Shown piece by piece: positions 4,501 to 60,800 of a DNA stretch of 64,000 bases. Source of the stretch: Heptranchias perlo (Eukaryota); contig NC_090340.1 of the NCBI RefSeq assembly GCF_035084215.1, forward strand, positions 5,456,001 through 5,520,000, read 5' to 3'. The notes under the pieces are model-generated. The model was given only the letters and a program-made list of their open reading frames with translations, was not told where the DNA came from and made no database searches. Each line of letters begins with the position of its first letter. The stretch's first letter is position 1. Both the position numbers and the translations under genes were made by a program.

Positions 4501-4518
4501 GCCCTGCCACGGTCGCCA
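4501..4518 (-). promoter_or_regulatory. Primer-binding site, tRNA-Arg type
   Basis: Minus-strand TGGCGACCGTGGCAGG is complementary to a tRNA 3' end ...CCTGCCACGGTCGCCA, which resembles vertebrate tRNA-Arg(TCG). It lies directly after the LTR-terminal CA. Confidence 0.8.
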
Positions 4519-4521
4519 ATT

Positions 4522-16910: not shown

Positions 16911-19900
16911 ACTAGGTTCGAATCCATTCATGACCTTGTCCTTCATTATATCTGGAACCTACTGCAAGTTTACAAGTCCTCCTCTCTGAAAAGAAAATTT
17001 CCATGTGTTTTGTTCACACTGTCTCCATTGTCGTTCGTGCCTTCAGCTATCTTAACGCCGTCTTAAGTACTCCTTATTTAGCTCGACGTCTTCTGTATTA
17101 AGTCTCTGTTAATCATGTTTTAGCCTTTCACATACATTGGGGTGGTTCCTGTCCCTTTTTACACATGCAATAGTGTTCTTTTGTCGACTCTGATTTTTTT
17201 TTTACATTTTAAATGTTTTAAAATACTGACTGACGATTACTTATGTGTCTCGTTGCATTTCCTCTACGTTTTATTCCTTTCTCAGTTGTGCGAGAGACCG
17301 TCTAGTTTCATTAATATTTCTAAATGATGTCACACTTTGTAAATTGTTATGTAACAAGTTCACGTATCAAATCTGAGAACTTTAAATTAATAAAACAAAG
17401 TCCTGAGGGTAAAAAAACCTAACTTGTTTTGAAAGGTAGGTTATGAACAGGCTAATACTAGTATTATAAACACAGCAAGATATATTACTTGCAGGCACAC
17501 GTGACTTAATATGATTCTTTGCAAACAACCCTAAGCTTTTAGTTTTGTCTTTATCGTAAAATACAACGAAGGACAGCAACCGATGGTTGTGTAATGCCAC
17601 TAAAATACCCGGACTACAGAAACCACCTGAACAGCAGCTTGTTGTGCAACACGCCCTATTAAACCGAGCATGAAAGGAAATTGAAACATTCAGAGGTCAC
17701 CTCAGGCCAACAACTGCAAAAAGGAGTTTCGCAATTTCACACGTTTACACATGCCGAATTTGACAAGATAAACATTACAACAGGTTGCCTGTGAATTCAA
17801 GTATATTGAATTAGATCCGTACGTTTTAACTTTATGGAACGTAAAGGTAAGAATGTTTTATGTTAGCTAGAAAACTATGTAGCACAATATGTAATTTTGA
17901 GGCTAAGATACACGATGATGTACGGGAAGTTTATTGAAACAAGGGCACTTTAGAGTTGAAAGGACACGATTGGACTGGGTGTAGATGGAAGAACGTCCTC
18001 AATGACCGAAAATGTGGTCCGTTAGAAGGACTATTTTGCTTATTCAGGAATTACACTTTAGTTCTCCCCAATTCCGGGCAGGCGTCTGGGAAGCACGTAA
18101 AAATTGTAAGCGGTACATGTTCTTGTTCGCTGGAGAAGTGGGAAGGTTTTCTTTCATTAGGAAGACGTGAGCGCCCGGGAGACTGGGGTATATCACTGTG
18201 GAGCGAAAGTTTTAAAAGGAAAAAATCAGGTGACAGAATGAAAGCCACACCAAAAAAAAAAGATTAGCTGGTATTTCAATGTTGCTGTGGGCAAATTGGC
18301 TGCAGTGATTGTCAGTATGATTACAGCATCGAACTTCAGTAAGTAATAGACTGACGGTAAATTCCATGAAAAAGCATTATATCAGTTTTCTCTCCCTCTC
18401 GTTTCATCTGTCCTCTATGAACCTAGAAATAATAATTATAAATCAAAATAACCATGAAAGCTTAGCCACTGGAATATTCAAGTCAGAAGGCAGCAATGTG
18501 TTTTAATGGCGAAGGGGCGAAGGTGGGAGCAGACACCTGCATATATAGTAAAAGATTTAAATAATGTAGTTGTGAAAGGCATTAGTTTGTGATATGTGTG
18601 AGTGAGTGGAGTTCAAAATACATGTGCTAGACTTGCTAGGATTTAGCAAATGAAACTAAGTGACGACTTCCCGCTAACTATTAACACCAAACAAGATGAT
18701 TATAAATCATCGCTCAAACCAGCCCAGCAGTGGAAATCACCGAAAACAATACGATAGCCTCTGAAAATAATGAGCTACACAAAGTCATAAAGACTCAGCA
18801 TTCTACACTAATTTGAGACATAGATGTTACTCGCTGCACTAGTTTAAGATTTGAAAGTTTCAACCTTCATAAACGAAAAGATTTCGGGCAATGAACCAAC
18901 TGAGAAGTCACGTGAACAGAAGCAGCTCATCGAGTCCAGAAAACAGATTTGAGAATAAGCTGATTTTTATAACTGTTTATGGAGCAGAGTTCCAACCATC
19001 TAAAGTAAATTATCATCGGGGTATTAACTAAAAGACATTTGAGTTGCACTACATCGTTTTAGTACCGTTACTGATTGTGTTTTATTCTGAATCCCTATCA
19101 CTATGTCGTGTACTATCATATTGGTTTAACGTATTGGCAATACATTCCACAGCGGTTCTCCCGATCTCCTGGGAAATGAAGAATAATGGACAACCAGTAG
19201 CGGTACCTCCTAATGCCGAAACTAACGAGGCTTTGTTATATGAAGGGAAACATTTCAACCGTATAAATGAGTCGAAATAGCGCTCAGACATGAAGCTCAA
19301 TAACCAGATTCATAAGGGAAGTAAATATCCTATCACTTTAAATTTCTGATTTTAGCTGGATATTAAGCTAGCCTTGGGACCTTTCTTCCTCTAACTAAAT
19401 TATATATATTTGTTAATGCTTCTTGTTGGTGAAACGGCCCACGCTGCAACATATCGCTCACAGCAATTTTCAACAAGGAAGTTATTATAAAGTAAGTGAA
19501 AACATTTTCTGATTGGAATCAGTGCATGGCCTATGCTAATAAACATTGGAGTTTGCATGATTGCAGCACAATATTTCCACAGGTTTCACATCATTTTAGT
19601 ATTCATTTGAAGTTGCCAGTCTAAGAGTTTGAATTGTGAATATTGAAGAGTTTCGGGAGATATTGGAAACATTCTGCAGTCGCTTGCTCTTCCACCCAGG
19701 GAAAACCTGAAACGCGCTTTGGAGTGGAATTCCACGGGTTTTCTCCCTATCTGCCGCCGGAACTTCGGGAGAAACTCTGGAATTCCAGACGATTCGCTAT
19801 TTTGATAACTTGCACTTGTACCACATCACGAGTCAGGAGGCCGATCACTGGGAGTTTCAGTTGGAGCTGGTGCCATCGGAGTTATTCCACAGGCCGTGAC

Positions 19901-21098: not shown

Positions 21099-21167
21099 CA
21101 ATTAAACAGTCATGTGATATCTGACCTCACAGATAAGCATGAGATTTTACTAGACACACAGCCGCCC
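21099..21167 (+). promoter_or_regulatory. Conserved proximal promoter block of receptor gene copy 1
   Basis: The 26-bp CAATTAAACAGTCATGTGATATCTGA is identical at 50739-50764 and contains an E-box (TCATGTGA). ACACAGCCGCCC (GC box) is also shared. The block lies about 70-135 bp upstream of the ATG. Confidence 0.6.
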
Positions 21168-21235
21168 GTTCCCCAAACTTTCAAGCATTCCATTCTCATT
21201 CGCAGCGTGTGATCTACCGTAATTCATCGCTCGAT

Positions 21236-21290
21236 ATGTTTCTGAGTGGAGCTCTTTTGGGCATGTGTTTCCTGGGCATTTTCAATCGAG
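21236..21290 (+). CDS. Copy 1 exon 1, signal peptide (MFLSGALLGMCFLGIFNR)
   Basis: ATG plus a hydrophobic 18 aa, with phase-1 donor G|GTAGAT conserved in copy 2. Too short for the ORF track. Confidence 0.8.
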
Positions 21291-24200
21291 GTAGATTTCT
21301 ATTTTTTTTTGTTATAAATTAACCTTTCACAAACTTTCCTGAACAAGATACAACACATGAAGTCGATCTTATAGTTGATATAAAATGGAGCAATGTTTTG
21401 GTGCTTTAATTTGATGTAATTTTAGCATGTGATGTGATTGTCAGACGGAAACAATTGGACGAACAAAGTGATGTTATTCATGTTAATTCAGCCAGGAAAC
21501 ACTTTCAGGAACTGGAGAATCATTCTAATAGTTAGGAACATAGAATTATTAATTTACCAATGAACTCGACGCACGTTATTATTTTGGTCGTGCAGATCAC
21601 TTCCCTATATATGAATTATTTAACCTGAGTGCGCATCTTTTGTTGATAGTTACTGTGGACATTTCGGGCAAGGTGATGCCAGGCATTGTACAAAAGACGG
21701 CGCTCAGAGGTACAAAGGTTACCTTCCGATGTCCTTTCCCCTTCGATCTCGATCATTCAAACATAATCCTTTACTGGTGGAGAGATGGTAATAAGACCTT
21801 CCTACAAGAAGACAGCAGAAAACAGTTCATTGTAAAGAAAGGCGGTGCCTACCTTCACCTCCTGAATGTGAGTGTCCCGGACGCCGGAACGTATTTCTAT
21901 GTAGCCAAATATCAGGATAAAACGGTTGTAAAAGGAACTGGTGTGCAACTTGTTGTATATGGTAAGTGTCGCTGGAATTGGACAGGTGAAGCGTTTAGTC
22001 GCGCTGAAGCTGTGGTTGATATTCAAACCGCGTTTAGCAAAGAATTTCAACATGAAAATGTCCTATTAATAAAAAGGTACAGCTTTCTACTTGTTCATAA
22101 AAATACGGAAACATTCCCAGTTCAAGAATCTCTGAAGAATGTGACGACTGACGCATGACATGAATTGTGATTTAATTTTGTGTTTATGAAGGAAAGTCAT
22201 CTCGAGGCTGAAGGCTAAGGCGCTTTTTCAATTATTGCACCCACTGCCTAAAAGAATAGTATTGATATTATTCGCAGTGTTATGCTTAAAGGCCCAATAC
22301 CTTATTTGGAAAGAACAGGGAAATTCCCATTCCAGTCATTTAGACGGCGCGCTTCCAGTTTCTGCCATGCAGGTAAAGTTCCTGAACAGCCGTTCGGCAG
22401 AACTAGTGAAATGCACCCGTTAAAGTAAGTGCCGCCGTCCAGCCACAGGTTCGAAGTCGATCCGCTCCGCACATAAGATGAAAATGTTCTTCATGTAACA
22501 ACAGAAGGCGTCCTGTACAGCAGTTCAACTATATCAGGTCGATTCGAACAGATTGGTATGAAAAAGCACAGCCTCGCTGTTGCAAATCTGTGTTGTTAAA
22601 TCTAACGGTGATGCGTCATTACAACAGGAGCGGAACTCGGAAAATAACGTGTGGAGAATCAATGGAGAAAAATCTAGATTGGGCTCCAGTCAGGATCAAT
22701 AATTATCATCGATACAACTACGATGCCACGAAACAACTGTTGATTATTTTATGAAAACGGATAGGATAGAGAATAAGTGTAGAAAATATTTTGCTTCATC
22801 TCTTTTTGCTCTTTTCCATTTAGTTGGCCCCGTTCCCCTGAAGATTGTCTCCACGGCATCCGAAGGGGCTTCATCTGCTTCTCTGCGGCTCCAGTGCAGA
22901 ACGGCTCCTTTTTACCCAAAGGATTTTAACCTCACCTGGCATAAAAATGGTACCGAAATTGTGACTGGATTTAGAACTGAACAACAGGCAAACACAGAGG
23001 GACTGTATGAAGTTATCAGCTCCTTACAAGAGATACGGCCAATCCAGCGCGGCACTGTTTATACCTGTCAAGTATATCACGTTTCAAACTCAATACCAGC
23101 AAATGTCAACTATACTGTTGGCAACGAAGGTAACATTATAGCATACTTGGTACTTTTATGTTGCCTGGTCACGCAGTAGTCGAATTTCCATTGCAGATAC
23201 TGTGGGATGCGTTTATTGTAATTGATTTGCATATTATTATGTCATCTTCGAAATCCACAAGCAGTTTAGAAATGTGCACAGCAATAATATAGCACGAATC
23301 ATGGGTCGGGAAGGATTCAACGTTCCAAAGTTAAATTAATGGAACACCGCTAATTAAAGTTTAAAGTCAGGCACAATATTAAAATGTATAGAGAGTTGAA
23401 AACAGCGGGCTGAGGCTACTGCGAAGAAGACTGTAAACAATTTCAAGAGGATGTAGGCAGCTCAGCAGATTTAGCAGAATCAACTCGGATGAAATTGCAT
23501 GCGTAAATATAAGAGGCGATATCGTTTGGTAGGATGAATGACAGCTCATACATGACAAATGGGGAAAAATAAATGAGTTAAATAGCTGAGCGATTCAGGG
23601 GTCGGGTCCATAAATATTTAAAAGTGTCAGGACAATAAAGCTGGGGAAAGTACCTTTTAGAAATCGGGACTTAGGGTTTAAAGGCAATGAGTTAACGCTA
23701 AACCGATACACATCGTCGGTTAGACTGTATTTAGAATATTGTGTTTATATTTGGGCAACTTACTGTGTGAATAATATTAAGAACATAGATAAAATATTTT
23801 TACTGAAGTAGTGTCAAGGATGCAGCATATCAGTTAAAAGGGGAAACAAAGAGATAAGGAGGGGCTTCATATCCTCGAATGGAGAAAGTTAAGAAGAGAT
23901 CTGCTTGAGATGTTCAAGACTTCGAAGGAGAAATGGAAAAAAAAATCTGATCAGTGAATCGGTTACCAGATGGCATACATTTAGGGTCATTACCAAAAGG
24001 AGGCAGGGAGCGGATATGGTTATTTTTTTTACCGACAACCATAGGAATTGTATGAAGTTCTCAGCTGCTTCCAGCAACCTGTAAAGAGCGGGATAGTTCA
24101 TACGTTTCTAGTTGCTCCTGATTCTCTCCCAATTCCAGCCAGTCTCAGCGACGCTGTTAACAACAAATGCAATGTTCAGACATACAGCACAATGAGAATG

Positions 24201-25605: not shown

Positions 25606-25754
25606 ATGTAAGAGATTTTCAAAGCACAATTATAATCTTAAACAACATTTTTCAATTTATAACATAGAAGGAATGTGTGACATATGATTATCAATTCTAG
25701 CGATTACTATTCAGTAAACACAAAATGACGACATAATGAGACATGCCTTGTATC

Positions 25755-29335: not shown

Positions 29336-29504
29336 GAGGGGATTTAAATGCTAATGAATGTCACTTCAATCAGACCAGACGAATTATTTTTGAATGATTA
29401 TATCAATACACTTGGCAGGTGAACATCATTGGCTCAGGCAATGAATCGTAGTTTGGTGTTAAGGTTTGATATATGTAACTTACAAAAGGATTGTTTATTT
29501 CCAG

Positions 29505-29613
29505 ACGATTTGATGCTGATGAAAACCACGGCTTAGAATACTCCAAGAGTTAACATGAAAAGGCAATTTCTCAGCAACGAAGAGAATCACAATATTTGAA
29601 CGTGACCGGTTAG
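29505..29613 (+). pseudogene. Candidate vestigial cytoplasmic-tail exon with tyrosine motifs
   Basis: Acceptor TTTATTTCCAG. The phase-2 frame reads RFDADENHGLEYSKS*HEKAISQQRRESQYLNVTG*. AATAAA follows at 29821 and 29887. Confidence 0.5.
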
Positions 29614-33185: not shown

Positions 33186-33224
33186 AACATCTCACCGAGC
33201 CATTATACCAATGCAAAGTCTAAT

Positions 33225-33325
33225 TTCCCACTCCAGAGACTTGAGCACATAATCTCGGCTGACACTCCAGAGGAGTACTGAGGGAATGCTGCACTGTCCG
33301 AGGTGCCGTCTTTCTGGATGAGACA
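33225..33325 (+). mobile_element. Deu-domain SINE fragment (AmnSINE1/SacSINE1-like)
   Basis: GACTTGAGCACATAATC...AGTACTGAGGGAATGCTGCACTGTCCGAGGTGCCGTCTTTCTGGATGAGAC resembles the DeuSINE core. Recognised from memory, not aligned. Confidence 0.65.
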
Positions 33326-33327
33326 CA

Positions 33328-33805
33328 CGAACATACAAATTAAGAGCAGGAGTAGGCCATTCGGCCCCTCGAGCCTGCTCCGCCATTTGATAAGATCATA
33401 GCTGATCTGATTTTGTCCTTTACCCTACTTTCTCGTCTACCTACTATAAACTTTGACTGCCTTGTTAATAAGGAATCTATCTAACTCAGCCTTAAAAATA
33501 ATCAATGATCCTACCTCCACCGCTCTCTGGGCAAGACAGTTCCTCAGACTCACCACACCCTGAGTGAAAAAAAATTCTGCTCATCTCCGTCTTAAACGGG
33601 AGACCCCTTATTTTTAAACTGTGGCCCCTAGTTCTAGTCTCTCCCACAAGTGGAAACATCCGCGTCGCATCTAACCCTTCTTGTCTCCTCAGGATCTTAT
33701 ATGATTCAATAAGATCACCGCTCATTCTTCTAAATTTCAATGTATACAGGCCCAACTTGTCCAATCTTTCCTCATAAGATAACCCCTCATCACAGGAATT
33801 AGTCC
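33328..33805 (-). mobile_element. CR1 LINE 3' fragment
   Basis: LGLYTLKFRRMSGDLIESYKI...TRGHSLKIRG, with a 3' UTR like that at 16020-16115. Confidence 0.85.
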
Positions 33806-34738
33806 AGCTGGATATTTATTTGATTGGCTGCCCATTGTGGAGTGATTTTGGCGCGGAAAAACTGAATGAGATGCTATGGTAATATCAAAGGCATGAAATT
33901 AGCCTTTAAAAAAACTATAGCTGAATTGTCCTTTGAAAACAATTTGTGCCTGGAATTTTCGCGAGGACTCTCCAGATCTCTAGGGTCGGAGATCAGCGAA
34001 ACTCCCAAGAAGTGGTACAATTCGCAAATAAAAATTGAAGCAAAAAAGGCTAAGGTGTATTTAAAATGAAATATCTTACATGAGTTCAGCTATTAATTTA
34101 TGGTCGTGACAGAAAAGTAATTTCCAATAAATGAATGTGATAACATTTATCAAATTAACGGGTTGACGGGCCCCTCACATTTTTGTAACTATCCTTCCTG
34201 TAAAATAAATGTCCAAATAACCTCATTGCAGTGAACCTGTGGAAAATAATTGGTAAGCGTTCCTTCATAGTATACATTTTACTATTCTACTCGTTGGAAT
34301 GTTAGATCTGTTCCAGTATCGTTCCATTCAAGAAAGTGATCTAAGTGTCTATTCTCCTTTGCAAAGATGAACCATTGTTGCGATTTATTTTGAGAAACGC
34401 AGACCTGATAGTAAATAAACGTCAAATTTTACAGCTTTAAGAACACGGGATCCTTAAAAATTAATGTGCGTCCCATCGGTATCCTGTCCATACCCTAAAG
34501 AACACGAAATCACCCCTGGTGAACAGAGACAACATTTGATAATTGCCGTTTTCGCAGTTTCTCTGTCATTTATACCGATCTCAACAGATTCGGGGTAAGA
34601 ATGGTAATAGTCTTATGGGATTTCATTGCTTGGGTTTATGAACGCACTGCATAAGTTTTTTTCTTGCAGGAACACAATCCACTCACATTTCCGTAGGGGC
34701 TTCGCCGATCTCCCGCCGTAATTTAGATGGATCAAGTC

Positions 34739-34904
34739 ATTTTAAATGTGCGATAATGTAAATCGGGCGATATCGTACGGCCCGCCGGTCAGAAACCTAA
34801 CTGGATTTCCTTTTCCATTGAAGTCAATGATAGGAAAATGCGACGAGGTGTACAGCAGGTGACCGATCCCATATCGCATGATTTACATTATCACTAAAGT
34901 TAAA
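34739..34904. mobile_element. Palindromic MITE-like element; paralogous copy at about 59419-59581
   Basis: GATAATGTAAATC (34752-34764) and GATTTACATTATC (34880-34892) are perfect inverted repeats around a CATTGAAGTCAATG centre. Confidence 0.7.
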
Positions 34905-45289: not shown

Positions 45290-48113
45290 ACTCGAGGGGA
45301 AGTTTGCAACAATTGGGAGAGCTGTCACACAGACCAGTCAAGCAACAGTCTGACATAGCCATACGCACAGAATCATATCTTTCAACCAAAGTCCCAGACT
45401 CCTCCATCACCATCCCTGTACATGACATGTCCCACCGGCAGGACAGCCCCACCAGAGGTGGTGGTACAATTATATGCAGTCAAGAGGGAGTGGCACTGGG
45501 AGTCATCAACATTGACATCGGACCCCATGAAGTCTCATGGCTTCATGTCAAACATGGGCAAGGAAACCTCCTGCTGATTACCAACTACCGCCCTCCCTCA
45601 GCTGATGAAAGAGTACTCCTCCATGTTGAGCAAAATTTGGAGGAAGCACTGAGGGTATCAATGACACAGAATGTACTCTGGGTGGGGGACTTCAATGCCC
45701 ATCACCAAGAGTGACTCGGTCGCACCACTACTGACTGAGCTGGTCGAGTCCTGAAGGATATAGCTGCCAGACAGGGCCTGCGGCAGGTGGTGAGCGAACT
45801 AACATGAGGGGAAAACCTAATTGACCTCGACTACATCAATCTACCTGTAACAGATGCTTCTGTCCATGACAGTATTGGTAGGAGTTATCACCGGACGGTC
45901 CTTGTGAAGACGAAGTCCCATCTTCACACTGAACACACCATCCCAATGTCTTGTGTGGCACTACCATCGTGCTAAATGGGATAGATTCAGAACAGATCTT
46001 GCCGCTCATAACTGGGCATTGACGAGGCACTGTAGGGCATCAGCAGCAGCATAATTGTTTCCATCACAATCTGTAACGTCATGGCACGGCATATCCCTCA
46101 CTCTACCATTACCAACAAGCCAGGAAATCAACCTCAGTTCAATGAGGAGTTTGGGTGAGCATACCAGGAGCAACACCAGGCGTACCTAAAAATGAGGTGC
46201 CAACCTGCTGAAGCTACAACACAGAACAATATACATGCTAAACAGCGGAACCAGTATGCTACAGACACAGCTAAGTGATCCCACAACCAACGGATGAGAT
46301 CAAAGCTCTGAAATCCTGCCATATTCAGTCGTGAATGGTGGCAGACGAATAAGCAACTAACGGGAGGAGGAGGCTATGTGAACACCCCCATCCTCAATGA
46401 TGGCAGAGCCCAGCACGTGAGTGCAAAAGGCATGACTGAAGCGCTTGCAACTATCTTCAGCCAGCAGTGCCGAGTGGACGATCCATCTCGGCCACATCTG
46501 GAGATCCCCACCATCACAGAAGTCAGTCTTCAGCTAATTCGATTTAATCCACGTGATATCAAGGCACGGCTGAGTGCACTGGATACAGCAAAGACTATGG
46601 GCACCGAAAACATAACGGCTGTAGTTCTGAAGACTTGTGCTCCAGAATTAGCCACTCCTCCAGCCAAGCTGTTCCAGTACATCTAAAACACTGGCATCAA
46701 ACCGACAAAGTGGAAATTTTGCACAAGTACGTCCTGTCCACAAAAAGTACGACAAATGCAATCTGGCCAATTACTGCCCCATCAGTCTACTCACAACCAT
46801 CAGCAAAGTGATGGAAGGTGTCGTTGACAACGCTATCAAGCGGCACTTACTCACCAATAACCTGCCGGCTGATGCTCAGTTTGGGTTCCGCCAGGACCAC
46901 TCGGCACAAGACTTCATTACAGACTTGGTCCAAACATGGACAAAAGAGCAGAATTCCAGAGGTGAGGTGAGAGCAATTCCATTTGACACCAAGGTAGCAT
47001 TTTACCGAGTGTAGCAGCAAAGAGCCCTGGTAAAATTGATGTCAATGCGAATCAGGGGGAAAACTCTCCAGTGGCTGGAGTCATACCGAGCACAAAGGAA
47101 GTTGGTATTGGTTGTTGGAGGCCAATCATCTCAGCCTCAGGACATTGATGCAGGAGTTCCTCAGGGCAGTGTCCTAGGCCCAACCACCTACAGCTGCTTC
47201 ATCAATGACCTTCCCTCCTTCATAACTTCTGAAGTGCGGTTGTTCACTAATGATTGCACAGTGTTCAGTTCCATTCGCAATGCCTCAGATAATGAAGCAG
47301 TGCAGCAAGAGCTTGACAACATTCAGGTTTGGGCTGATAAGTGGCAAGAACATTCACGCCAGAAAAGTTCCAGGCAATGCCCATCTCCAACAACATTGAG
47401 TCTAACACCTCCCCTTGACATTCAACCTCGTTACCATCACCGAAACACCAACATCAACAACCTGCGGGTCATCATTAACCAGAAACGCAACTCGTCCAGC
47501 CACATTAATACTGTGGCTACAAGAGCAGGTCAAAGGCTGGGTATTCTGTGACGAGTCACTCATCTTCTGACTCCCCAAAGCATTTCCACCATCCACAAGG
47601 TACAAGTCAGGAGTGTGATAGAATACTCTCCACTTGCCTGGATGAGCGCTGCTGCAACAACACTCAAGAAGCTCGACACCATCCAGGTCAAAGCAGCGCG
47701 CTTGACTGGCACCACACCTACTGCCTTAAACATTCACTCCCTCCACCACCGACGCACCGTGGCTGCACTGCGCACCATCTACAAGATGCACTGCAGCATC
47801 TCTCCAAAGCTTCTTCGACAGCACCTCCCAAACCAGCGACTCTACCACCTAGAAGGTTAAGGGTAGCAGGCACATGGGAACAGCACCGCTTGCACGTTCC
47901 CCTCCAAGCCACACACCATCCTGACTTGGAAATATATCGCCGTTCCTTCGCTGGGTCAAAATCCTGGAACTCCCTGCTTAACAGCACTGAGGGAATACTT
48001 TCACCACACTTGGTTCAAGAAGAAGGCTCACCACTATCGTCTCTAGGGCAATTAGGGATGGGCAATAAATGTTGGCCTTGCCAGCGACACCTACATTCCA
48101 TGAATGAATAAAA
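45290..48113 (+). mobile_element. Family B LINE, nearly complete but disrupted ORF2 (APE plus RT)
   Basis: TESYL, YRPPS, VGDFNAHH, QFGFRQDHS and GVPQGSVLGP motifs; 3' end CCATGAATGAATAAAAA. Confidence 0.9.
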
Positions 48114-49662
48114 ACAATTATAAATACACCATAAAACCTTAAATTCTGGCACAACCGAGTTAACATAATTTCATTAAACAACACTGACCTTGCGGTTTGG
48201 TACTTACACACAAAATGCAAAAATGAACACTCAACGGCTGTAATGCTACTGACCTAACATGAACCACAGGAACCATCCGCACAACAGCGTGTTGTGCATC
48301 ATGTCCTATTCAGCCGAGCATAAAAGCAAATGGAAAAATTGTAGAACTGATCTGTGGTCAACAAGTGCAACTTTTTCCACTAGGGCTTTCACACTGTTTC
48401 TCGTTGATTGATATTGTTATTTGTCAAGCTAAGCGTTATAAAAGTTCAGACTTCCAGCTTTTGCAGATTTTTTCGTGAAATTGGATAATAGCCAACGCTC
48501 TTTACAGCCAATAACAAAATAAACTGGATCTTCTCCTGATGCGAAATGTTAATGCAATACTAAGCTCAGCTCAGCCAATAGCGCCGGTTTGGTGAATTAT
48601 GTGCAACAGACTGGAGCCATCTCTGATTCACGACTTCACTTTCTTGGGGAAACGGCCTATTGCTTCTGTGACCCTCATAATGTCGGAGCTGATGAGTGTT
48701 TGCTGTGGAAAATGAAAGATTCACGGTGGATTTCTCAGTGGTTCCTGGACAAGATTCGCCAAAGTTAAAGGGGAGTTGGGAAGAAACGCTGCGGAAATTC
48801 CAGCTGAGTAAAATGAAACAAACGCCCAAGAACGGTTTCTCGGCGACACTGATTAACTATAAGGACCATAATTTCCAATAATTATCAATATTGTATTATT
48901 TTATGTCCATGCACAATAACCCATTTCATAAGGCAAGTATTTTTGGGATATAAATTTGTGATTTAATCAGTTTTAAATTTGTGATTTATGTCAGTTGCTA
49001 AATTAGCCTTGGGATCTTCCTATCCCCAACTGAATTGAGAATTTCTTTATTTTGTCTTCTTGATGAAACGGCGACGTTGGCATGTATCATTGACAGGAAA
49101 TTGTAGATATAAATGTTCAATGAAATGTTAACCAAATATCTGTATTGTCCTTGGGAACCTGCTAAAATAATAAGCGATAGAATTTCCGCGGGGCTTCCGC
49201 CGATATTCCCCCAAAGTTACAGTGCGATATGGGGGGACAAAACCGTGAAAATGCGCCCCCATTTTCATGTTGGGATTATCTACTATGGGGTGATTTGAAT
49301 TTCGGGCGATCGTGTACAAAGATTAACACTTCTTAAACTGCAGAGCAGGGAGTGTTAGACAAGCGGGCAAAAGTGACTCAACAGCGATCCATCTTCAACC
49401 CAATTTTGCTCCAATAGTTTCTTTAGTGTCCAGGAGAACCTACCGATTTTTTTCACCCAGACTCAGCGGACTGGTTCTCCAGGTCGAATGAATCACACTC
49501 TCAAACTATTTGTCTTCCGTGAGCTCTCGAGTTAATTCAGAACCTGACTGACGAGTTATAATGCCACTTTATCACTGAATCTAATGTAACAGTAGCCTTA
49601 GAGTTCCCAAGAAAATGACGAATATTCATTGTACATAAAATGCCCTCAAATGTATAAAAGTA

Positions 49663-50279
49663 TACATTGGCGAGACCATGCAGACGCTGCGACAACGGAT
49701 GAACGGTCACCGCGCAACAATCGCCAAACAGGAGGGTTCCCTCCCAGTCGGGGAACACTTCAGCAGTCATGGACATTCATCCACCGACCTTCGGGTAAGC
49801 GTACTCCAAGGCGGCCTTCGAGACACACGACAACGCAAAATCGTCGAGCAGAAATTGATAGCCAAGTTCCGCACCCATGAGGACGGCCTCAACCGGGATC
49901 TTGGGTTCATGTCACGCTACACGTTACCCCACCAGCGAACAAATGTTATCTGTTTTTAATATAATGGGTCATTTGCTGGCTTTCTCTGCCTTCCGGATGT
50001 TTCTGCCTCTCTCTGTGTTTTTTCCTGTTTGTTTTTTTGTTGAATGTGTATTCGGGGGTTCTGCAGGTGACACCTCTCTGTCTGAACACGGTTATTGCCT
50101 TGGCAACGGGCAGTTGCAGGGGCATTCTGTAAACACCATGTATTGTTCTATATGTATAAATGCGTAGGCTTCGAGGAGCTCCTGAACATTTACCTGAGGA
50201 AGGAGGAAGCCTCCGAAAGCTTGTGAATTTAAAATAAAATTGCTGGACTATAACTTGGTGTTGTAAAATTGTTTACAAT
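49663..50279 (+). mobile_element. 5'-truncated Penelope-like element (GIY-YIG endonuclease C-terminus) with a 12-bp TSD
   Basis: YIGETMQTLRQRMNGH...PVGEHF...EQKLIAKF...GLNRD, flanked by TGTATAAAAGTA at 49651-49662 and 50280-50291. Confidence 0.88.
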
Positions 50280-50738
50280 TGTATAAAAGTAACCCGAAGA
50301 TAAATTTGAAACTGTACACAGATATTCCATTCGCGACCGAATTACCTCCTATCGCAAAATTGAATCGTTCTATCAAGTCATGGAACTGTAGGTCTATCCC
50401 CCAAACTATGGGACGCCCTCGCTCCAAATTGTGTTTGCTACACGACTTAGCCGTATAGATAGGACTTTTAGAACTCAGGCGATCCTCTTCAGGTCAACTA
50501 TAGTCTCAATAAACAGATGCTGCAGAATCAATTAGTTCTAAAAACACGGAAGACATACAATATTCGTCCCTCGTGGCTGGTAAAGAAATTTTGATTTGTG
50601 GACTTGTAAGCTCCATATACAATTTTAAAAAGCTCCACGGTTTTTGATATTAATACAGCCTCCTGGTTTCTGCTACCGTTTTTGCTCACAACTGCACCCG
50701 AAGTTCGTACCGTAAACGACATGCATTTCTCCAATCCA

Positions 50739-50805
50739 CAATTAAACAGTCATGTGATATCTGATGACACATAATTTTGAGATCATAATCGATACACAGC
50801 CGCCC
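50739..50805 (+). promoter_or_regulatory. Conserved proximal promoter block of receptor gene copy 2
   Basis: Identical 26-mer with the TCATGTGA E-box, plus a GC box, shared with 21099-21167. Confidence 0.6.
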
Positions 50806-50873
50806 ATTCCTCAAACCTTCCTCCATACTGTTTTAATTCACAGCGGATAATCTACCGTATTTCATTGCTCAAT

Positions 50874-50928
50874 ATGTTTATGAGTGGGTCACTTTGGCGC
50901 ATATATTTCCTGGGCATTTTCTATCCTG
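50874..50928 (+). CDS. Copy 2 exon 1, signal peptide (MFMSGSLWRIYFLGIFYP)
   Basis: Homologous to 21236-21290; donor G|GTAGAT. Confidence 0.8.
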
Positions 50929-53900
50929 GTAGATTTTTATTTTTATTCTAATATATTAATCGTTGCTGAGCAAGACACCACACTTGAAATTGATCTAATA
51001 GTTGACGTGCAGTCGGATATTGCTTTTTGCTGGTTTAATTTGATTTAATTTTTTGAAGTCATGTGTCTCTTGCCGCATGTAAAATCTAGATGAGAACGCT
51101 AATGTTATTTATGGTAATTGAATGGGGAAACACATTTTGGATCTGGAGAATAATTATGATAGTTAGTTAATTCCTAATGTACCCATGGACTGGATGCGCG
51201 ATAATATTTTGGTGGTGCATATCATCTTTCGCATATATTAATTACTTAATCAGTGTGTCTCCTTTTTTGATAGTTGCTGTGGACACTTCGGGCAAGGTAA
51301 CTCCGGGTATTGTACAAAAGAAGGCGCTCAGAGGTACAAACCTTATGTTGCAATGCCCTTTCCCTTTCGACCTCGATCATTCAAACGTAAATGTTTACTG
51401 GTTTAGAAAGGATAGCGAAACCCTCCTGCAAGATGATAGCAGAAAACAGTTTCACATAAAGAAAGGCGGCGCCTACCTTCACCTCCTGAATGTGACCGTC
51501 CTGGACTCCGGAATTTATCAGTGTGTAGCCAAAGATAAGGATCGAACGGTTGGAAAAGGAACTTTTGTACAAGTTGTTGTATATGGTAAGTGTCGGTGGA
51601 ACTGGAATCGGGAAGAGTTTATTTGGTGTCGATATTCATACTACGTTTAACAAGGAATTTCAATAAGAAAATGCCTTGTCTATAAAACAGTACAGCTTTC
51701 ATAATTGTTTATAACGACACGTGTTCAAAAATAAAGAAACTTTCCCAGTTCCAGAGTCTCTGAAAAAATGTGAAAAATGACCGAAATCTCCAATTGTGAT
51801 TAAATGTTATGTTTATCAAGGAAAGTAAATTCAAGGCTGGGAACCAAAACGCTTCTTTTCAATTTTAGCACTAAGGCCCAGTGTCTTATTTGGACATTTA
51901 TACGGTGCGCTTCCAGTTTCTGCGATCCAGATACAATTCCTGGATCGCTGTTCGGTGGAACTGGCAAGACGCATACCATAAAGCTGGTCCCGTAGTCCAG
52001 ATGGAGGGTCCGAAATCGCTCCTTTCATGTCCAGATGGAGAAAAAGTTGTCCATGTAACCACAGAACGCGACCTGTACTGTTGCAGCAGTTTAATAACAG
52101 AATGCCGATTCGAACACATTGATACGAATAAAAAGAGACCTAATATTCGAAATAAATGCTGTTAAATATAACAATGATACGCCAGTACCGTAGAAGAGAA
52201 AGTTCGGGAAATAACGTCTCTAGATGGATTTAAGAATATTACAGAGAGTTACGTAGAATGTACAGCACAGAAACAGACCATTCGGCCGAACAGCTCCATG
52301 CCGGTGTTTATGCTGCACATGAGCCTCCTCCCTCCCTACTTTATCTACTCCTATCAGCATATTATTTTAATCTGTTCTCCCTTGTGTGTTTATCTAGCTT
52401 CCCCTTAAATGCATCTACGTTCGTAACCTTACCTATTCCTTTTAGTGGTGATGTCCACATTGTAACCACTCTCTGGATAAACATGTTTCTCCTGAATTGC
52501 CATTTGGATTTATTAATGACTATATGATATTTATGGCACCTAGTTCTGGTCTCAACCTTAAAGACCTCTATCGAATCACTCCTTAATCTTCTATTTTCAG
52601 AAGAAAAGAGCGCCAGCTTGCTCAATCTATCCCGATAGGTATAACCTCTCAGTTCTGTTATAGTCCTAGTAAATATTTTTAAACGTTCTCTAGTGCCTCT
52701 ATATACTTTTTATAATATGGAGACCAGAACTGTTCACAGTACTCCAAGTGCGGCGTAAACAAAGTTCTATACAAGTTTAACATAACTTCTCTGTTTTTCA
52801 ATTCTATCTCTCGAGAAATGAACCCCTGAGCTTGGGTTGCTATTGCTATGGCCTTATTAACCTGAATCGCTACTTTTTATTGATTTGTGTATCTGTACCC
52901 CCAGGTCCCTCAGCTCCTCAACCCCATTTAGATTCTTGCTGTTCAAGCAGTATGTGCCCCCTTATTCTTCCTACCCAAATATAATACTTCACACTTATCT
53001 ATATTTATATTCATTCCCCCAATTACACACTTATTCTGCCAGTTTATTAATGTTCTCCTGCATTTTGACGCAGTTCTCCTCTGTATTGACCATACCTCCC
53101 AATTTGGTGTCATCCGCAAATTTTAAAATTGTACCCGTGACACGTTCCCTGGATTTGTTCTATCTGCCTTTTTTAAAGATAGGAATCACATTAACTGTCC
53201 ACCAGTCCTCTTGAACAAATCACTTTTCTATTGAATTTTTAAACATATGTAATAGTGCCTCTGCTATCTGTTCCCTAACTTATTTTAATATGCGTGGATG
53301 CAATCCATCCAGACCAGGGGATTTACCCTTTGTAGGTTTGATTAGTTTATCAATTATCTCCCCCCATTCTATCTTAAATGTCTTCATATCCTTTTTGGTC
53401 TCTTGTTCTAATGCCATGCCCGCCACATTAGTCTCCCCGGTAAACACCGAGGCAACATAATTATTTAATATTTGTGGCACTTCACTTTCATTACCTGTGA
53501 GGTTTTCGTTTGTATCCCTTAGTGGCCTTATCCCTATCATGGTTTTTCTTTTGTTATTTACGTATGTGTAGAATACTTTACAATTTCTTTTTATATTCTT
53601 TGATAATTTAATTTCATAGTTTATCTTTGCCTTCCTAATTGTTTTCCTTAAACTCTTTCCTACCCTTTTTGTATACCCCTTTGTCATCCTCTCCTTTGTT
53701 GTTGGTGTGCTTAGTGTATGCCGTTTTCTTAGTTTCAACGTTGCCCTTATTTATTTATTCATCCATGGTGTATCAATACTTGTAAGTTTGAGCTTGCTTT
53801 TTCGTGGGATATATTTCTCTTGGACGCTTTTGGTCACCGTTAGAAATGTTTCCCACTGCTGTTCTAGTTATTTGTTTATTAGTAAGCTTTTCCAATTTAT

Positions 53901-55691
53901 TTTTCCTAGTGTCATTCTCATCCCTTGAAAATCAGCACTTTTTCCAATTTATTCCTTTGTTTTTTCTCTTACTTTTATCGTTCTCAATCTTTACCTTAAA
54001 TCTTATTATGTTGTGATTGATATTGCCTAGATATTGCCCGATGCTTACGTTTCCTATCTGTTCTGTTTCATTTCCCATTACGAGATCCAGCAGTGCTTCC
54101 TCCTTTGTTAGGCTTTTTACCTAGTGGATAAGAAAGGAGTCCTACAAATATTGTAAAAACTCAATTCCCTCTACACTTTTACCTACCTCATGGCAGATTA
54201 TTAGGGGATAGTTGAAATCTCCCATGATTATTATTCTACATAAATATAAGATAATAATTAAGAAATCCAATAGGGAATTCCAGGGAAACTCCTTTACTCA
54301 TTTTACATCTTTCCTTACACATTTCGTCCTCCAACTCCTTTCCACTATTAGGTGGTTTGTAGTATATGCCTGTTAGAGTGATCGATTCCTTCTTATCTTT
54401 CATTTCAATCCTTATGGATTCTGCTTCTATCCTTGCATATAACAGTAATATGCCAATAGTGTAGAAGACGAAGTTCGGGAAATGATTTCTGTAGATACAG
54501 TGAATAAAATTTAGTTTAGGCTACATTCAAGATAAATAATGATTGTCCGTACAACTACAATGCCCGGACGCAGGCACCGGTTAATTTTTGAGAAAAAAAT
54601 AGCAGACCATATACGGGTCAAATATTCTTCTTTATCTATTTTTGCTCGTTTCCGTTTAGCTGTCCCCGTTCCCTTGAAGATTGTCTCCACACCACCCGAA
54701 CGGACTTCATCTGCTTCTCTAAGACTCCAATGCAGAACAGCTCCTTTTTATCCGAAGGACTTTAACCTCACCTGGCATGAAAATGGTACCGAAATTGTGA
54801 CAGGAATTGAAACTGAACAACAGGCAAAGACAGAGGGACTGTTTGAAGTTATCAGCTACTTAGAAGTGACAGACCCAATCGAACGCGGCACTGTTTACAC
54901 CTGTCAAGTGTATCACGATTCAATCTCAATTCCAGCAAATGCCAACTACACCGTTGCTAACGACGGTAATATTATAGAACACGTGGTTCTTTTATCGATT
55001 TCAGAGATTCATTACCCAGTAATCGAGTTTCCATCAGAGATAATGGGTACAATCAAAAATATGTGGAAAGTGTTTACTGCAGTTGTTTGCATATCATTCT
55101 GTCACTTCCGAAGTCCAGTTTTACTTCAGCTCCCATGTGATGATTCCCATTCCGTTGGGCATTAGGATCTGATGAGGAATAAGTTGGTCGCAAGCAGTTT
55201 AGGTAATAGTGGACGCCAGTCCACATCGTAGTTTCCATAATTCACTCCATAACTAGCATAATAAGCAAGGAAAATAATGAGATAAATTAACACAGCGATA
55301 GATTGGACAGAAGAACCAAGTGATAATAAATAACATTAAATGCAAAATCCTATTCCATACTAAATCCTAGTCACACATCATCCCTGACGTCGCTGACCTA
55401 CATTGACTTCCAGTCCTCCAATGCCTCAATTTTTAAAAAATCATCTTCGTAATCAAAGCCCTGGATGGCCTCACCCCTCAATATCTCTATTTCTCTTTCC
55501 TGAAGAAACAATATCACCAGATTGATATGGTCTCAGGTTATGAGCTATGCATCATTGATTACCTTTTACCTTTTCCAGATTATCGCTCTGCCCTCCCCGT
55601 CCACCTGATTTATCGATCCACAGTGGGGGTACTGGTAATTATTCTACTAATGATGATCATCTTCAACCATGTTTCATCAGATAACATCTAA
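50874..55691 (+). CDS. Ig-superfamily receptor, copy 2 (leader-VJ-C1-TM, 261 aa), apparently intact; join(50874..50928,51274..51585,54660..54965,55579..55691)
   Basis: Exons of 55+312+306+113 nt, all joined by phase-1 GT-AG introns, in an open frame. All four canonical Ig Cys and both core Trp are present. Confidence 0.92.
51274..51585 (+). CDS. Copy 2 exon 2, VJ-type V domain
   Basis: LMLQC, VYWFRK, DSGIYQC and VGKGTFVQVVV (GxGT motif); TAG acceptor and GTAAGT donor. Confidence 0.93.
52240..54436 (-). mobile_element. CR1 LINE inserted in the V-C intron of copy 2
   Basis: GKSPGLDGLHPRILK and RRNMFIQRVVTMW motifs, with an APE GDFNYP remnant near 54210. Absent from the copy 1 intron. Confidence 0.85.
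54660..54965 (+). CDS. Copy 2 exon 3, C1-set Ig domain
   Basis: LQCRTAPFYPKDFNLTW...YTCQVYH; TTTAG acceptor and G|GTAATA donor. Confidence 0.93.
55579..55691 (+). CDS. Copy 2 exon 4: stalk, TM with Arg, short tail
   Basis: Acceptor CTTTTCCAG; DYRSALPVHLIYRSTVGVLVIILLMMIIFNHVSSDNI*; donor AG|GTAAGA 2 nt after the stop. Not in the ORF track. Confidence 0.88.
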
Positions 55692-57589
55692 AGGTAAGAA
55701 CATTTTAAAAAAATTATAATCATGAACAGCATTTTTTCAATTTATAACATGGAAGGAATATGTGACATTTTATTTCTCAATTCAAGAGATTATTACCTGA
55801 TAAACACACAATAATGAAATACGATGACAAAATCCAGGCTGTGCTATTAGGGCCGCAGTGTAATGCTGCCTTAACGGTACGTAAAATCGGCTTTTACTTT
55901 GCCCTCAGATTCATGGCCTTACCAGCATCCATTAAAGAGACAAGCTGTGCACGACTTGTTAGCAGTCGGTTCTGCGCCATTTATGCCATCCTATGTTCTC
56001 TATTAAATTATAGCCTGTATCTTATTTTTATTTTCAGTTATTCTATATCTAACCAATTCCAATGCCAGAATTAGATATCCGTTTGTGATTCACTTCAGGA
56101 TACACAATGGACCTAAAATTCCGTTGGATTACCACCAGCTTCTCGCGGGGGAACGGTGCAATTGCCATAAAAATTGCATACATTCAGAAAACGACCATTT
56201 GCACCGTTTCTGCGTGCTTCAACAGTGAACAGGTACAGGAGCAACAGTTGAACAACTACTGCGGTAGGAGCTCCTCCAAAAATGAGCACTTCGATACGTC
56301 ACTTCTGTACTTTGGCAAAAAGACAATCGTTGATGAGAAGATACAGAACCTCGACACATCATTCGACACATTACTCGTTGTGATAACAGCTCAACGCAGC
56401 ACCTGTTACCGCAACGATCGACACCATACTTCTAGACGGCTGCCTTGATGTTTAATGTAGGTTGTCTGTGCTACTTGCTTTTGCTTTACGTCTGCTTGTA
56501 GGAATCGGGTAGACAGTCCACGTATTAATTGAATTGCTTCATGCTTATGTGCACGTTTTTTTTAAATCATTAAATAATCGCTTTGATTAATGTACCTATT
56601 GTGTAAGCGTGCATTTCTTTGCGTGGGTTATTGTCCAGGTCCACGAATCTCAGGGAAAGACCCAAATTTCCCTACACAGTTCTGGTCTCCATATTATAAA
56701 AAAAAAGTGTATAGTGGCACTGGAGGAGTTTTAAAAAGATTTACTAGGATGATACAAGATATCAGTTCGCCGATTCGGGGTATCATTCCTTTTCTGTTCT
56801 TTGCCTTTAAAAAATCTGGGTAATCTATCAGTGTTACCTACCCCAATAAAATTAATGGCTGGTTTATCTATTCTAACCCTTGGCTCAACTAATTTAAATG
56901 CTCCCAAAAGGCTACCTCAAAATTCTCGGATATCTGTGCATCACGAAGTTAAGATGGAGGCCATCTCTCCGAAAAAGCTTATCCTGCCGCTGAAAAAATC
57001 CCCAGTTTTCTATAATTGTATGTTTCTCCCTTTTACAGAGATCGCCGAGCTACAGGTTGAGTCCGATGATTCAGCGGTTCCTTTCGGCAGCATTGGAAGA
57101 AAGTTAGGCGTGAAAAGATTAAAGGATGTAATGAGTATAACATTTACCATCGGCCAAAATCTGGTCACTAATCCATGAAAGGAAGTTATGCTCTTGAGCC
57201 AAAATTGTAGGGCTTCATGAAATTGAATTTGATTAGCCTTATCTCCTTGGTCACACTGCCTGTCGATGATACCGTAAGTTCCCATTCCTCTCCTTTGAGC
57301 CCAGCGAACAGTAAGCACGTTGGCGCAACAGTCAAAAATAAGGGTTAAAACATTTTGGGAGCAATATTAACTGTGGGTGATAATGTAAAACCTGAATATC
57401 ATTGAAATGAAATTGAGAAGAATTGAATAAAGAGCGCCAAAATCGAAACGGCTCGTTTTACATAATCAACCAAACTCAAAATTACTTCCGTTAATTCGGG
57501 TCTGCGCCCACATTTCGATGCGCACGGCTCCCGTTCTGTTGCTACTTGGATGATTTGGGAGAGGACAACCTGGCCATGGCGAGGCCTCA

Positions 57590-57875
57590 CGAGGATAGAT
57601 TATATAATCTTGATTTTTATTGGCCTGCGTTTCGAACGATGAGAGCTTATTGAATAGAGGTGCTTAAAATGATCAAAGGGTTCGATCGGGTAGCTATTCC
57701 CTCTGGTAGAGGAATCCAGAATAACAAGACGCAATCTCGGCCATTCAGGAGTGTAATCGGGAAGTACATTCTCACACGAATGATAGTGAAAATCAGGAAT
57801 TCTCTCCCTCGAAAGGCTTTGACCGCTGGGCCAACTTAAATTTTTAAGACTGAGATCGACAGGTTTTTATTAGTT
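57590..57875 (+). mobile_element. Old CR1 3' fragment shared with the duplicate unit (homolog at about 30905-31043)
   Basis: CTCACGAGGATAGATT...AAAATGATCAAAGGGTTCGAT...CCTCTGGT matches 30907-31038. Confidence 0.65.
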
Positions 57876-60800
57876 AAGTGTATCCAGCATGACAACAAAT
57901 TTTAAAGTTGGAGAGAGCTTTGAAAATAGGTGTAATGATCCAGTACACATTATGGATGTTGATATTATAAACTGTGCTACCTTCGTTGCTTATGATTCGA
58001 TGCCTCAAGTCCACCAGAGAAAAAACAGACCACCAAAAAGTACACTCTAAAATTAACAGAGAATCATTAGTATATTTATAACATTTCGTGTATATACCTT
58101 TCATCAGACATACCTGAAATGTCATATCATGCATTTTCCTTTTATCACTGGTTACTGGCCTGCTGTGTATTTCCAGTATTTCTTGTTTTAAGTGAGATAT
58201 GAAGCGTTTGAATTTTAATATATTTTATTGTACTCGGGGAATTCTGCTTATTTGGAGACAATATGTGTATTATGAGAGACAATGACAATTAATGTAATCA
58301 AATCTGCTTCTGGACACAGCTCCAGACGAGGAGGGTGTGATCCTTTGATCAAGAGTGCAAGATGCTCAAACAGTTACCGAAAATCTCTGATAAGTTTGTG
58401 GCCTCACAACTGTCAATGTTGCCCCAAGGGTGGAAAGATAGAAACTGCAAACATCCAACCAGTCAATCATTCACGGAGACGGCTGTTCAACGGTGAGTGA
58501 ATTACATTGCAGTGCGGCATAGCACAGAGGGGGAGGGGGCATCTAAAGAGCTGAATAATTCTTTGATTGATAGCCTGTTGTTGAGTGGTTTTGGCACGGA
58601 AAAAACTGAGTGAGATCTGGCAATGCTTTGGCAATGGTAAAGGTCTGAAATCGGCATAAAAAATTGCAGCTGAATTGTCCTTTGAAAACTATATACGCCT
58701 GGAATTTCTGCCGATGTCTTCGGTCCAAGGTCAGCAATAACACTCACGAAACGGCATAGTTCAGAACTAAAAACTAAAGCAAATAGGCTAAGGTGCACTT
58801 TAATACGAAAAATCTTCCACCTGTTTACCTACTCACTTATGATAATGCAAGAAAAGCTATTTCAAATAAATGAATGTAATAACATTTATTAAATTGGACA
58901 TTTATATTTTTGTACCTATCATTACAGTAGTATATATGTGAAATTACGCTCAGTGCAATGGGTCTGTGGAAAATAGTTGGTAACACTTCCTTTCTAGTGT
59001 GCATTTTACTTCTGCACATGTTGGAATGTTAAGTCCGCTGATGTGATTTCATTTAAGAAAATGATCGAAGTGGCTTTTGTAAAGATCAACCGTTGGGATT
59101 TAATTTGAGAAACGCAGGACTGTTCCTAAAAAATCAACATCAAGTTTTACAGTTTTAACTACGCTGACGCCTTAAAAATCCACGGCCAACCGCTTGTATC
59201 CTATGGTGATTTCACAGAACACCGATGCAAATACCTGAAGAATGGTGACAACGTTTGATAATGGCCGTTTACGCAGTTTCGCTGTAAGAGTCATACGTGA
59301 TTTCCAAGCCTGAATTTATGACCGCCCTGCGCATTTTTTTTCTTGAAGGAACGCAATCTATTCACATTTTCCTGAGGGTTCAGCAGATCTTCCGCCACAA
59401 CTTCGGTGGGTGGAGTAATTTTAATTTGGCGATAATGTAAATCGGGCGATATCGGATCGGCCGCTGATTATACACCTAGCTGGATTTTCTTTTCCATTGA
59501 AATCAAAGAAAGAAAATTCAGGAAGTGTGCAACAGGCGGCCGCTCCGATATCGCATGATTTGCACTATCCCAAAAGCTAATATTACCTCTATGATGGACA
59601 GAAAACGAGAGAACTGAGGTGGCCATTTCCGGTTGAAGAGATTTTTCCGATATCTCCCAAAAGTTAGGCCTTAAATTCTTCCGCCCTGTACATTAATAAT
59701 TAACCAATCTAAAAATATCAAATATATATTATCATAGAAATGATTCGTCGGGGTTTAGATCCAGTGAGGGAGTTCTTTTCTCCAAATAAGGGGTAAGATT
59801 CGTGCGCTATTTGCATTTAATTGGTAAGCTAGTTGAGAAACTATTCATAATAAATATTTTTAAATATTTAATTTCAACGCCCCCGCCCCCCCTCCACGAA
59901 CAATGGGGCGAATTTCCGAGGTGTTAACAGTTCCCACAATTCAACGTGTGTCATCCAGGTGATTAGGCCACTCAGGGACACAGGACCATGAATTTTGTTA
60001 AAGTGCAGTCATGTGAATTTGAACACTTGCTGCAAAAGTGAAGGTTGAAGTGCCTGTATTTGTTTTATAAATTTGCACTAAACAGGTGAACTTTTTGCTA
60101 AGGGCTAAGCTGCTGTAACGCAACCTGCGAGCTAAGTGGGAGAACATAACGCTATCATCCACAGCACTTGATTCTCTGAAGTTCATTAGGGTATAAGTTC
60201 ATGCTGGGTGGTAGTGCAAAACGGGTTGCGATTCATTCTTGCCAGTTTTACACTACCGCTGAAGACGATTTTACACCGTATATTATCGAAATAATGCTCG
60301 GACTCGCGCTAACTTTAGTCATTTACCCAAGACGATCGGGAGAAAGCCCACGAAAATTCACGTCCGTTGTCTTCTGAAAATTCAAATGACCTGTATAATG
60401 TTTTTGAAGTAGGAAAAAAAATCATAGAATAAGGGGTCACCAGCAGACAGTATCTGAGCACAGGACATTGCGAAATGTATAGTTGCACAAAAGATAAGAT
60501 TTATTTGAAGGATGTGGTAAAAGTATGTTACGGATATATTGGGCAACATCTGTAAAAAATACGTTTCGGCTTACACAGGGCTTGCAGAGATCAAATGAAT
60601 TAGTAAAAGCAATGAAAGCGATATACGGCTGCCCATGACTAATATTAAATGGACACAGGCTGATAGACAACCAATTGCGGCTTGAAAGCTTTGTCATAAA
60701 CCTGCTAAATAGTTTAGTTCAGTCTAACTTTGAGAGTGCTATTTTTGTCTGCAACTTTTTTCAGGTCTTGTCGCTAGTTTTCACAGCACTTACTTACTAT

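Follow-up and report, generated by a model that had tools for sequence, protein, structure and literature searches.

Structure of the Locus and Its Two Genes

The window, by which we mean the whole 64-kb stretch of DNA analysed, carries two related genes on its forward strand: gene A and, approximately 30 kb downstream from it, gene B, whose second exon encodes the short V domain that is our main subject. Gene B comprises four coding exons (leader, VJ, C1, and transmembrane, TM), all of them canonical phase-1 exons, and its 261-aa product is identical to XP_067853505, a Heptranchias perlo protein labelled in RefSeq as 'NCR3 ligand 1-like' (NCR3LG1-like). The features of the two genes, with the evidence for each, are:

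18137..18214, + strand: likely third V exon, now a decayed remnant (E-F strands), upstream of gene A; weak match to the family V profile (10 bits, iE 0.003), with stops around it
21236..21290, + strand: gene A (tandem paralog, XP_067853503/P0002), leader exon; splice sites and translation
21650..21961, + strand: gene A, VJ exon; 68% identical to the gene B V, second Cys replaced by Tyr
22824..23129, + strand: gene A, C1 exon; 79% identical to the gene B C1
25493..25607, + strand: gene A, TM exon; TM Arg and short tail, as in gene B
50874..50928, + strand: gene B, exon 1, with the ATG and leader (55 nt, phase 1); splice sites, and translation equal to XP_067853505/P0001
51274..51585, + strand: gene B, exon 2, an unsplit VJ-type Ig domain with a short C-D link; Pfam, RefSeq match and model, spanned in its entirety by the X1 contig
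54660..54965, + strand: gene B, exon 3, a C1-set Ig domain; Pfam C1-set 52.9 bits, joined to the TM exon in the X1 and X4 contigs
55579..55693, + strand: gene B, exon 4, with stalk, TM helix, tail of about seven residues and stop; translation, model helix 232-259, contig joints
56099..56521, + strand: gene B, 3' UTR exon, covered as far as 56521; linked to the TM exon by a GT..AG joint in the X1 and X4 contigs

The single C1 exon of gene B is spliced to the TM exon, and in the protein Arg237 lies near the N-terminal end (top half) of the TM helix (residues 232-259). Both the C1-TM and the TM-3' UTR joints occur at GT..AG boundaries in the X1 and X4 contigs. These are the joints listed for H. 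perlo contigs, leader-V and V-C1 not being among them; a V-C1 joint is present in a contig of run X3, from another organism. That the four contig runs are RNA is only a guess, and three of them (X1, X2, and X4) derive from one sample, possibly the source of the RefSeq annotation. The X1 contig spans the entire V exon, with 52 further 5' letters lying outside that alignment. It differs from the window in this exon at positions 51404 (Phe44 to Leu) and 51455 (His61 to Gln), both nonsynonymous, and the X1 C1 contig shows no differences. The two V-exon differences reflect an allele or a close paralog, and are too few to call a polymorphism focused on V.

Gene A lies within a collinear duplicated block (~17400-34900 versus ~48100-59600), 67-82% identical with non-coding stretches included. 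Among the 91 family members aligned (see below), it is the only one in which the second canonical V Cys is replaced, here by Tyr; its ORF and its other exons are intact. The substitution may have produced either a V domain lacking the disulfide or an early stage of decay. The dN/dS values between genes A and B (0.58 for V, 0.36 for C1) do not indicate net positive selection. The degenerate V remnant upstream is consistent with birth-and-death turnover. Elsewhere in the window, the reverse strand carries broken LTR-retroelement-like ORFs at 1294-5014, which contain a zinc knuckle (Pfam zf-CCHC, 29.3 bits) and match RT weakly, and an open stretch of 221 codons at 31991-32656 with a hydrophobic Gly-rich segment, which is env-like by eye and has no Pfam match.

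A Germline V Domain Predicted to Lack C''

The V exon of gene B measures 312 nt, is flanked by an AG acceptor and a GT donor, and is in phase 1 at both ends. Pfam assigns it nearly tied scores as V-set (34.1 bits) and I-set (29.8 bits), and its translation matches the V part of XP_067853505 at 100% identity; on these grounds, we take it as a real Ig exon. The sequence-only reading had described the domain as unusually compact, counting 55 residues between the two Cys (exon positions 28 and 84) and 14 residues from Trp43 to Arg57, and our recount agrees with both figures. Its further proposal of a germline-encoded receptor also stood, the gene being a non-rearranging one: the G strand is encoded within the V exon, no RSS adjoins it in a scan of both strands of the 64-kb window, and the contig runs unbroken across it. 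The sole RSS-like match in the window lies in intron 3, with three mismatches and an 11-bp spacer. The FG loop consists of 10 germline residues from the Cys to the position equivalent to the J-Phe.

Two AlphaFold models (pLDDT 88.9 and 88.4) contain strands A', B, C, a C' of two residues, D, E, F, and a split G, and lack C''. The domain is thus predicted to have the topology A'-B-C-(C')-D-E-F-G without C'', and the minimal V-like fold without C''/CDR2 that had been suggested from the sequence is borne out in the models, with no sign of the normal C' and C'' strands that would have spoken against it. A predicted topology of this kind (A'BCC'DEFG, with a short C' and no C'') is also I-set-like. 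The V-type frame of gene B itself is degenerate: V-x-Q-x-P is missing, the model has no A strand, and the second Gly of GxG is replaced by Phe.

We compared the Cys spacing with that of other Ig domains. Hand counts from alignments gave 65 for SIRP-alpha d1 and 63 for a V-kappa; with group labels assigned in this analysis, the spacing is 64 in a bird TCR-gamma-like V, 71 in an NITR-like V, and 67-71 in B7-H6-like V domains. For VNAR, the Cys22-Cys83 spacing is given as 60. Among I-set-like domains, of which 633 were taken from 38 giant multi-Ig proteins, the median is 49 (quartiles 48-53), with 25% of the domains in the range 53-59. The domain under study is therefore shorter than VNAR and within the upper I-set range. 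Turtle multi-V proteins, at 59-62, provide other examples of short VJ-like domains, indicating that the shortening recurs.

A Clustered Gene Family of Cartilaginous Fishes

A profile search returned 57 proteins, 51 of them at E<=1e-48 and all labelled as shark, ray, or chimaera (Callorhinchus), the other six being at E>=1e-9. A search with representatives gave a list of 150 proteins, in which giant multi-Ig proteins were numerous; of 20 representatives looked up, the 16 at family level all proved chondrichthyan, and of the remainder three came from turtles and one from a lungfish. Counting named rows only, relatives are found in 17 species, each a shark, a ray, or a chimaera, and there is no bony-vertebrate label among the named family-level matches. 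Within one species, members cluster on one contig. Six lie on a 66.5-Mb contig in H. perlo, including the ITIM-type P0079, whose accession (XP_067853506) is the next after XP_067853505. Automatic names are inconsistent (SIRP-like, tapasin-related, NCR3LG1-like, IgL-like, MHC II-like), and have obscured a large clustered VJ-C1 family that extends across sharks, rays, and a chimaera. No earlier description was found in the literature searched (papers and supplements), and key papers outside that reach could list these genes; such a family of chondrichthyan VJ-C1 paired receptors has apparently not been described before.

We aligned the 91 members that have both V and C1; fragments, fused models, and forms with V only were set aside. 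Nearly all members have one C1. The Cys spacing falls between 53 and 59 in all 88 members scorable for both markers: 53 (28 members), 55 (13), 57 (2), 58 (44), and 59 (1). The Trp-to-Arg distance is either 14 (n=38) or 16 (n=50). The short V domain is a family trait, not a peculiarity of gene B, and since the spacing is common to the aligned members, it is not an error of the H. perlo assembly. Intact ORF, splicing, and this family-wide spacing together rule out an assembly artefact or a pseudogene. Among the models left out, P0018, P0119, P0156, P0163, and P0175 have the V joined straight to a TM segment with an ITIM-like tail, without C1, which suggests exon-skipped isoforms.

Across the alignment, the D-x-G-x-Y-x-C motif is kept, as are the D-strand Arg (83 of 91 members) and, with it, the F-strand Asp. 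At the start of the V domain, the three residues of V-x-Q-x-P are conserved in 74/85, 72/83, and 71/83 members, respectively; at its end, those of G-x-G-x-x-L-x-V are conserved in 85, 83, 76, and 87 of the 91. The latter motif agrees with the J consensus quoted in PMC11599192, save for the Phe. By our inferred mapping of positions, neither Phe nor Trp ever occupies the J-Phe equivalent; 54/91 members have Asn there, and the position forms an N-x-S/T sequon in 48/91. This makes pairing of the VH/VL type unlikely, and the single V domain would then bind its ligand without such a partner.

With the family V profile, the lowest-scoring member obtains 87 bits, versus 47-54 for the turtle multi-V proteins and 38.6 for the best I-set domain; the NITR-like V reaches 32.6, B7-H6-like V domains at most 28 (both labels assigned here), and a lungfish SIRP-like V 22.8. 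A V-domain tree built by a quick method (20 family and 29 outgroup rows) did not separate the deep relationships, and the TCR-gamma-like and NITR-like rows formed long branches. Its rows included no VNAR, NKp30, UrIg, or PRARP, and the pattern used did not pick up the lungfish SIRP-like V. Only generic Ig clusters were obtained from ESM Atlas, and a PDB search with a turtle multi-V protein named no family.

Probable Activating and Inhibitory Forms

A TM segment could be called in 74 of the 91 members, leaving 17 models without one. ITIM-like motifs are present in 2 of the 24 members with a TM Arg and in 29 of the other 50 (Fisher p 3.8e-5, a value that overstates the case because the rows are related), and the median tail is 17 aa in the Arg-TM class versus 78.5 aa in the others. 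These TM calls come from a crude classifier, and the Arg assigned to at least P0003 and P0016 looks to be wrong. Among the non-Arg members, 21 have no ITIM-like motif, and many of these may be truncated models. The Arg and ITIM classes interleave on a quick tree of the ectodomains (91 rows). In one ray species, the ITIM-bearing P0029 and the Arg-bearing P0037 are 93% identical in V and 94% in C1. In many non-Arg members the TM segment begins with a Cys, one residue after the position of the activating-type Arg; it is possibly a site of disulfide formation or acylation.

CD89 couples to FcR-gamma through an Arg close to the top of its TM segment, and the coupling of NKp30 and NKp46 to zeta/gamma through such an Arg is assumed in the same source (PMC13107469). 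Given this precedent, the TM Arg and short tail of gene B, and its ITIM-like relatives, we infer that gene B is activating and is paired with inhibitory paralogs. Family members likely serve as immune receptors, some activating and others inhibitory, and on account of the two classes the family is a strong candidate for a paired-receptor complex of shark NK or myeloid cells. As for the exon itself, we consider it probable that it encodes the unsplit, N-terminal VJ domain of a clustered four-exon leader-VJ-C1-TM gene whose protein is an activating innate receptor with an FcR-gamma/CD3-zeta-type adaptor on its TM Arg. In such a mechanism, the Arg of gene B would recruit the adaptor to give an activating signal. 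The ITIM-bearing paralogs would be paired with the Arg form and recognize the same or similar ligands, and by analogy with SIRP-type receptors the paired forms may have to do with a self marker versus a pathogen mimic.

Resemblance to VNAR

The sequence-only reading had compared the domain to shark VNAR. VNARs are indeed among its best structural matches, and this part of the proposal stood; special kinship did not follow, given the tied scores, an identity of 17-25% to VNARs, and the absence of VNAR among the listed matches of sequence searches with family queries. A wide structural search of the V model placed a skate VNAR first (8ht3, Z 12.8, rmsd 1.8, 88 residues aligned), tied with domains of BARF1, titin, and contactin. 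In a second search, VNAR or NAR titles accounted for 18 of the best 50 rows, all of which have Z between 12.0 and 13.0; they are headed by a TCR-complex chain/TCR V-alpha (13.0) and V-lambda (12.9), with FGFR2 (12.8) and titin (12.3) also among them. Foldseek ranked CRTAM, neuregulin, ICOS-L, and titin first. In sequence, the best single-domain matches listed are TCR-alpha, PD-L1, and CD79b; titin, contactin, and DCC head the searches with scores that are sums over many domains. A plain I-set fold had been put forward as one outcome that would refute the reading, and it does not discriminate, since VNAR is itself described as I-set-like in topology (PMC8470474). With a topology common to VNAR and I-set domains, the fold cannot show kinship.

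Gene B shares with VNAR (8ht3, 2i24) a predicted short C', a direct C'-D link, and the lack of CDR2/C'', and VNAR is in the top tier of its structural matches. The genes, however, are built differently. VNARs arise by V(D)J rearrangement and carry a long and diverse CDR3, and IgNAR has three or five C1 domains, as described in the sources consulted; gene B has one unsplit V exon with no RSS, 10 germline residues in the FG loop, and one C1, so it is not an IgNAR. The Cys spacing also differs (60 in VNAR versus 55). A germline-joined IgL or IgNAR was considered as well and rejected, as there is no J-Phe, no RSS, and a TM exon after a single C1.

Could the compact V nonetheless share ancestry with the V domains of VNAR and NAR-TCR, the family being their non-rearranging sister? 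The common predicted topology, the VNAR entries in both structural searches, and the fact that the named family members, like IgNAR, are all chondrichthyan would agree with this. We regard it as improbable, in view of the ties of Z with TCR V-alpha, V-lambda, FGFR2, and titin, the low identity, the best single-domain sequence matches lying elsewhere, the recurrence of shortening in turtle multi-V proteins, and a gene architecture that is different throughout. A wider version of the idea, in which the cluster preserves a two-domain VJ-C1 receptor of the pre-RAG precursor type, its V is the germline sister of VNAR, and the compact fold predates rearrangement rather than resulting from deletion in a TCR or Ig V, appears to us quite unlikely too. 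The structural ties, the 17-25% identity, the lack of a VNAR among the sequence matches listed, and the turtle multi-V proteins as the best outside match favour convergence: the likeness to VNAR is likely convergent rather than inherited, with C''/CDR2 probably lost by the ancestor of the family in an event separate from that in VNAR. Having another CDR2-less V domain from chondrichthyans makes it possible to test whether the VNAR fold had a single or a repeated origin.

Relationship to Known Receptor Systems

The closest parallels to the family come from several systems at once. Like SIRP-alpha, -beta, and -gamma (2wng, 4i2x), its members have a germline V with a J-like G strand followed by a C1-set domain; they form clusters of paired receptors, some with ITIMs and others with a charged TM (a likeness at the level of motifs, the charge in the family being Arg); and the family profile matches SIRP over the full length of V+C1. 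Unlike SIRP, which has two C1 domains, gene B and its relatives have one, their V domain is 6-12 residues shorter, the residue near the top of the TM segment is Arg rather than Lys, and the lungfish SIRP-like V scores poorly. SIRP-beta has a TM Lys and couples to DAP12. NKp30/NCR3 resembles gene B in its germline VJ domain and in having a TM Arg within the helix's top half. It differs in that NKp30 is not known to carry a C1, gene B having a C1 exon. The matches listed in structural searches of the V model include no NKp30, which says little either way. The NITRs, as far as described in the sources consulted, have a germline VJ and a multigene activating/inhibitory design; the V that we labelled NITR-like has a spacing of 71 and a score of 32.6 bits, unlike the family.

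In gene architecture, the family recalls the non-rearranging VJ-C1 genes. UrIg and UrIg2 have an unsplit VJ, with three C1 domains in the secreted UrIg and nine or more in UrIg2 (PMC12227049), and PRARP and tetrapod VJ-C1 genes are mentioned as non-rearranging VJ-C1 genes in PMC10751288. An unsplit VJ exon, a leader intron, and C1 are common to this class and gene B, which also consists of a single-exon VJ, a C1, and a TM. The differences are the three or more C1 domains of UrIg and UrIg2 versus one, a UrIg2 V whose N-terminal half barely aligns, and the multigene, two-domain nature of the shark family, with its Arg/ITIM classes and short V. A two-domain VJ+C1 layout has been posited as the precursor of antigen receptors (PMC12227049, Fig. 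2), and gene B corresponds to it, and intact single-exon VJ genes are sought as kin of the gene into which the RAG transposon moved. Over V+C1, the family profile scores SIRP-alpha at 66.1 bits, Ig light chains at 67.3 and 68.9, and UrIg2 at 56.1, which we take as a tie; the best isolated C1 among the four alignments shown is SIRP-alpha d3 (47.9 bits). The best reading is that the family works like the paired receptors of the SIRP/NITR type and has the build of the non-rearranging VJ-C1 class.

Three other identities were weighed against this. The family could be the chondrichthyan ortholog of SIRP in a one-C1 form, with a CD47-like self ligand and a short V due to a lineage-specific deletion, in which case SIRP-type paired receptors would date to the gnathostome ancestor. 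The profile does align across the entire V+C1 of SIRP-alpha, whose d3 is the best isolated C1; a J-like V, a C1, and paired signalling are present, and RefSeq often labels members SIRP-like. Ig light chains score equally over V+C, however, the lungfish SIRP-like V falls below the turtle multi-V proteins and even some I-set domains, there is one C1 rather than two with a spacing of 53-59 rather than 65, and the TM Arg contrasts with the Lys/DAP12 type of SIRP-beta, so that we find orthology rather unlikely. The RefSeq label 'NCR3LG1-like' would instead make the protein a B7-family-type ligand and not a signalling receptor. The ectodomain model indeed matches B7-H6 best (Z 15.1, rmsd 3.1, 182 residues aligned), tied with ICOS-L (14.5) and followed by butyrophilin (14.1) and PD-L2 (13.9), and PD-L1 is among the best single-domain sequence matches. 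This identity has little probability in our view: the V domains labelled here as B7-H6-like have spacings of 67-71 and at most 28 bits versus the family minimum of 87, a division into Arg and ITIM classes and a J-like strand with GxG suit receptors, and little can be read from the V-C angle of a predicted monomer. An origin without V ancestry, in which a common I-set adhesion domain was shuffled onto a C1 exon, would account for the I-set-like topology, for titin, contactin, and DCC at the head of the sequence searches, for the close Pfam scores, and for a spacing within the I-set range. We hold it to be very unlikely, as those top scores are multi-domain sums, the best single I-set domain obtains 38.6 bits versus 47-54 for the turtle VJ domains, and both V-x-Q-x-P and the J-like G-x-G-x-x-L-x-V are kept.

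In the gene table of sawfish chromosome 34 (MHC), which we consulted by names only, NCR3 is present and no SIRP-like or tapasin-related name occurs, SIRP-like being how the sawfish family member is named; MHC linkage of the family, judged indirectly from these sawfish gene names, may be unlikely. The turtle multi-V receptors (P0136, P0170, and P0172) give the best V match outside cartilaginous fishes and resemble the family in their spacing of 59-62 and their GxG strand, but they lack a C1 and have at least four V domains. All three are automatically misnamed, and a tail with a tyrosine motif is seen in P0172.
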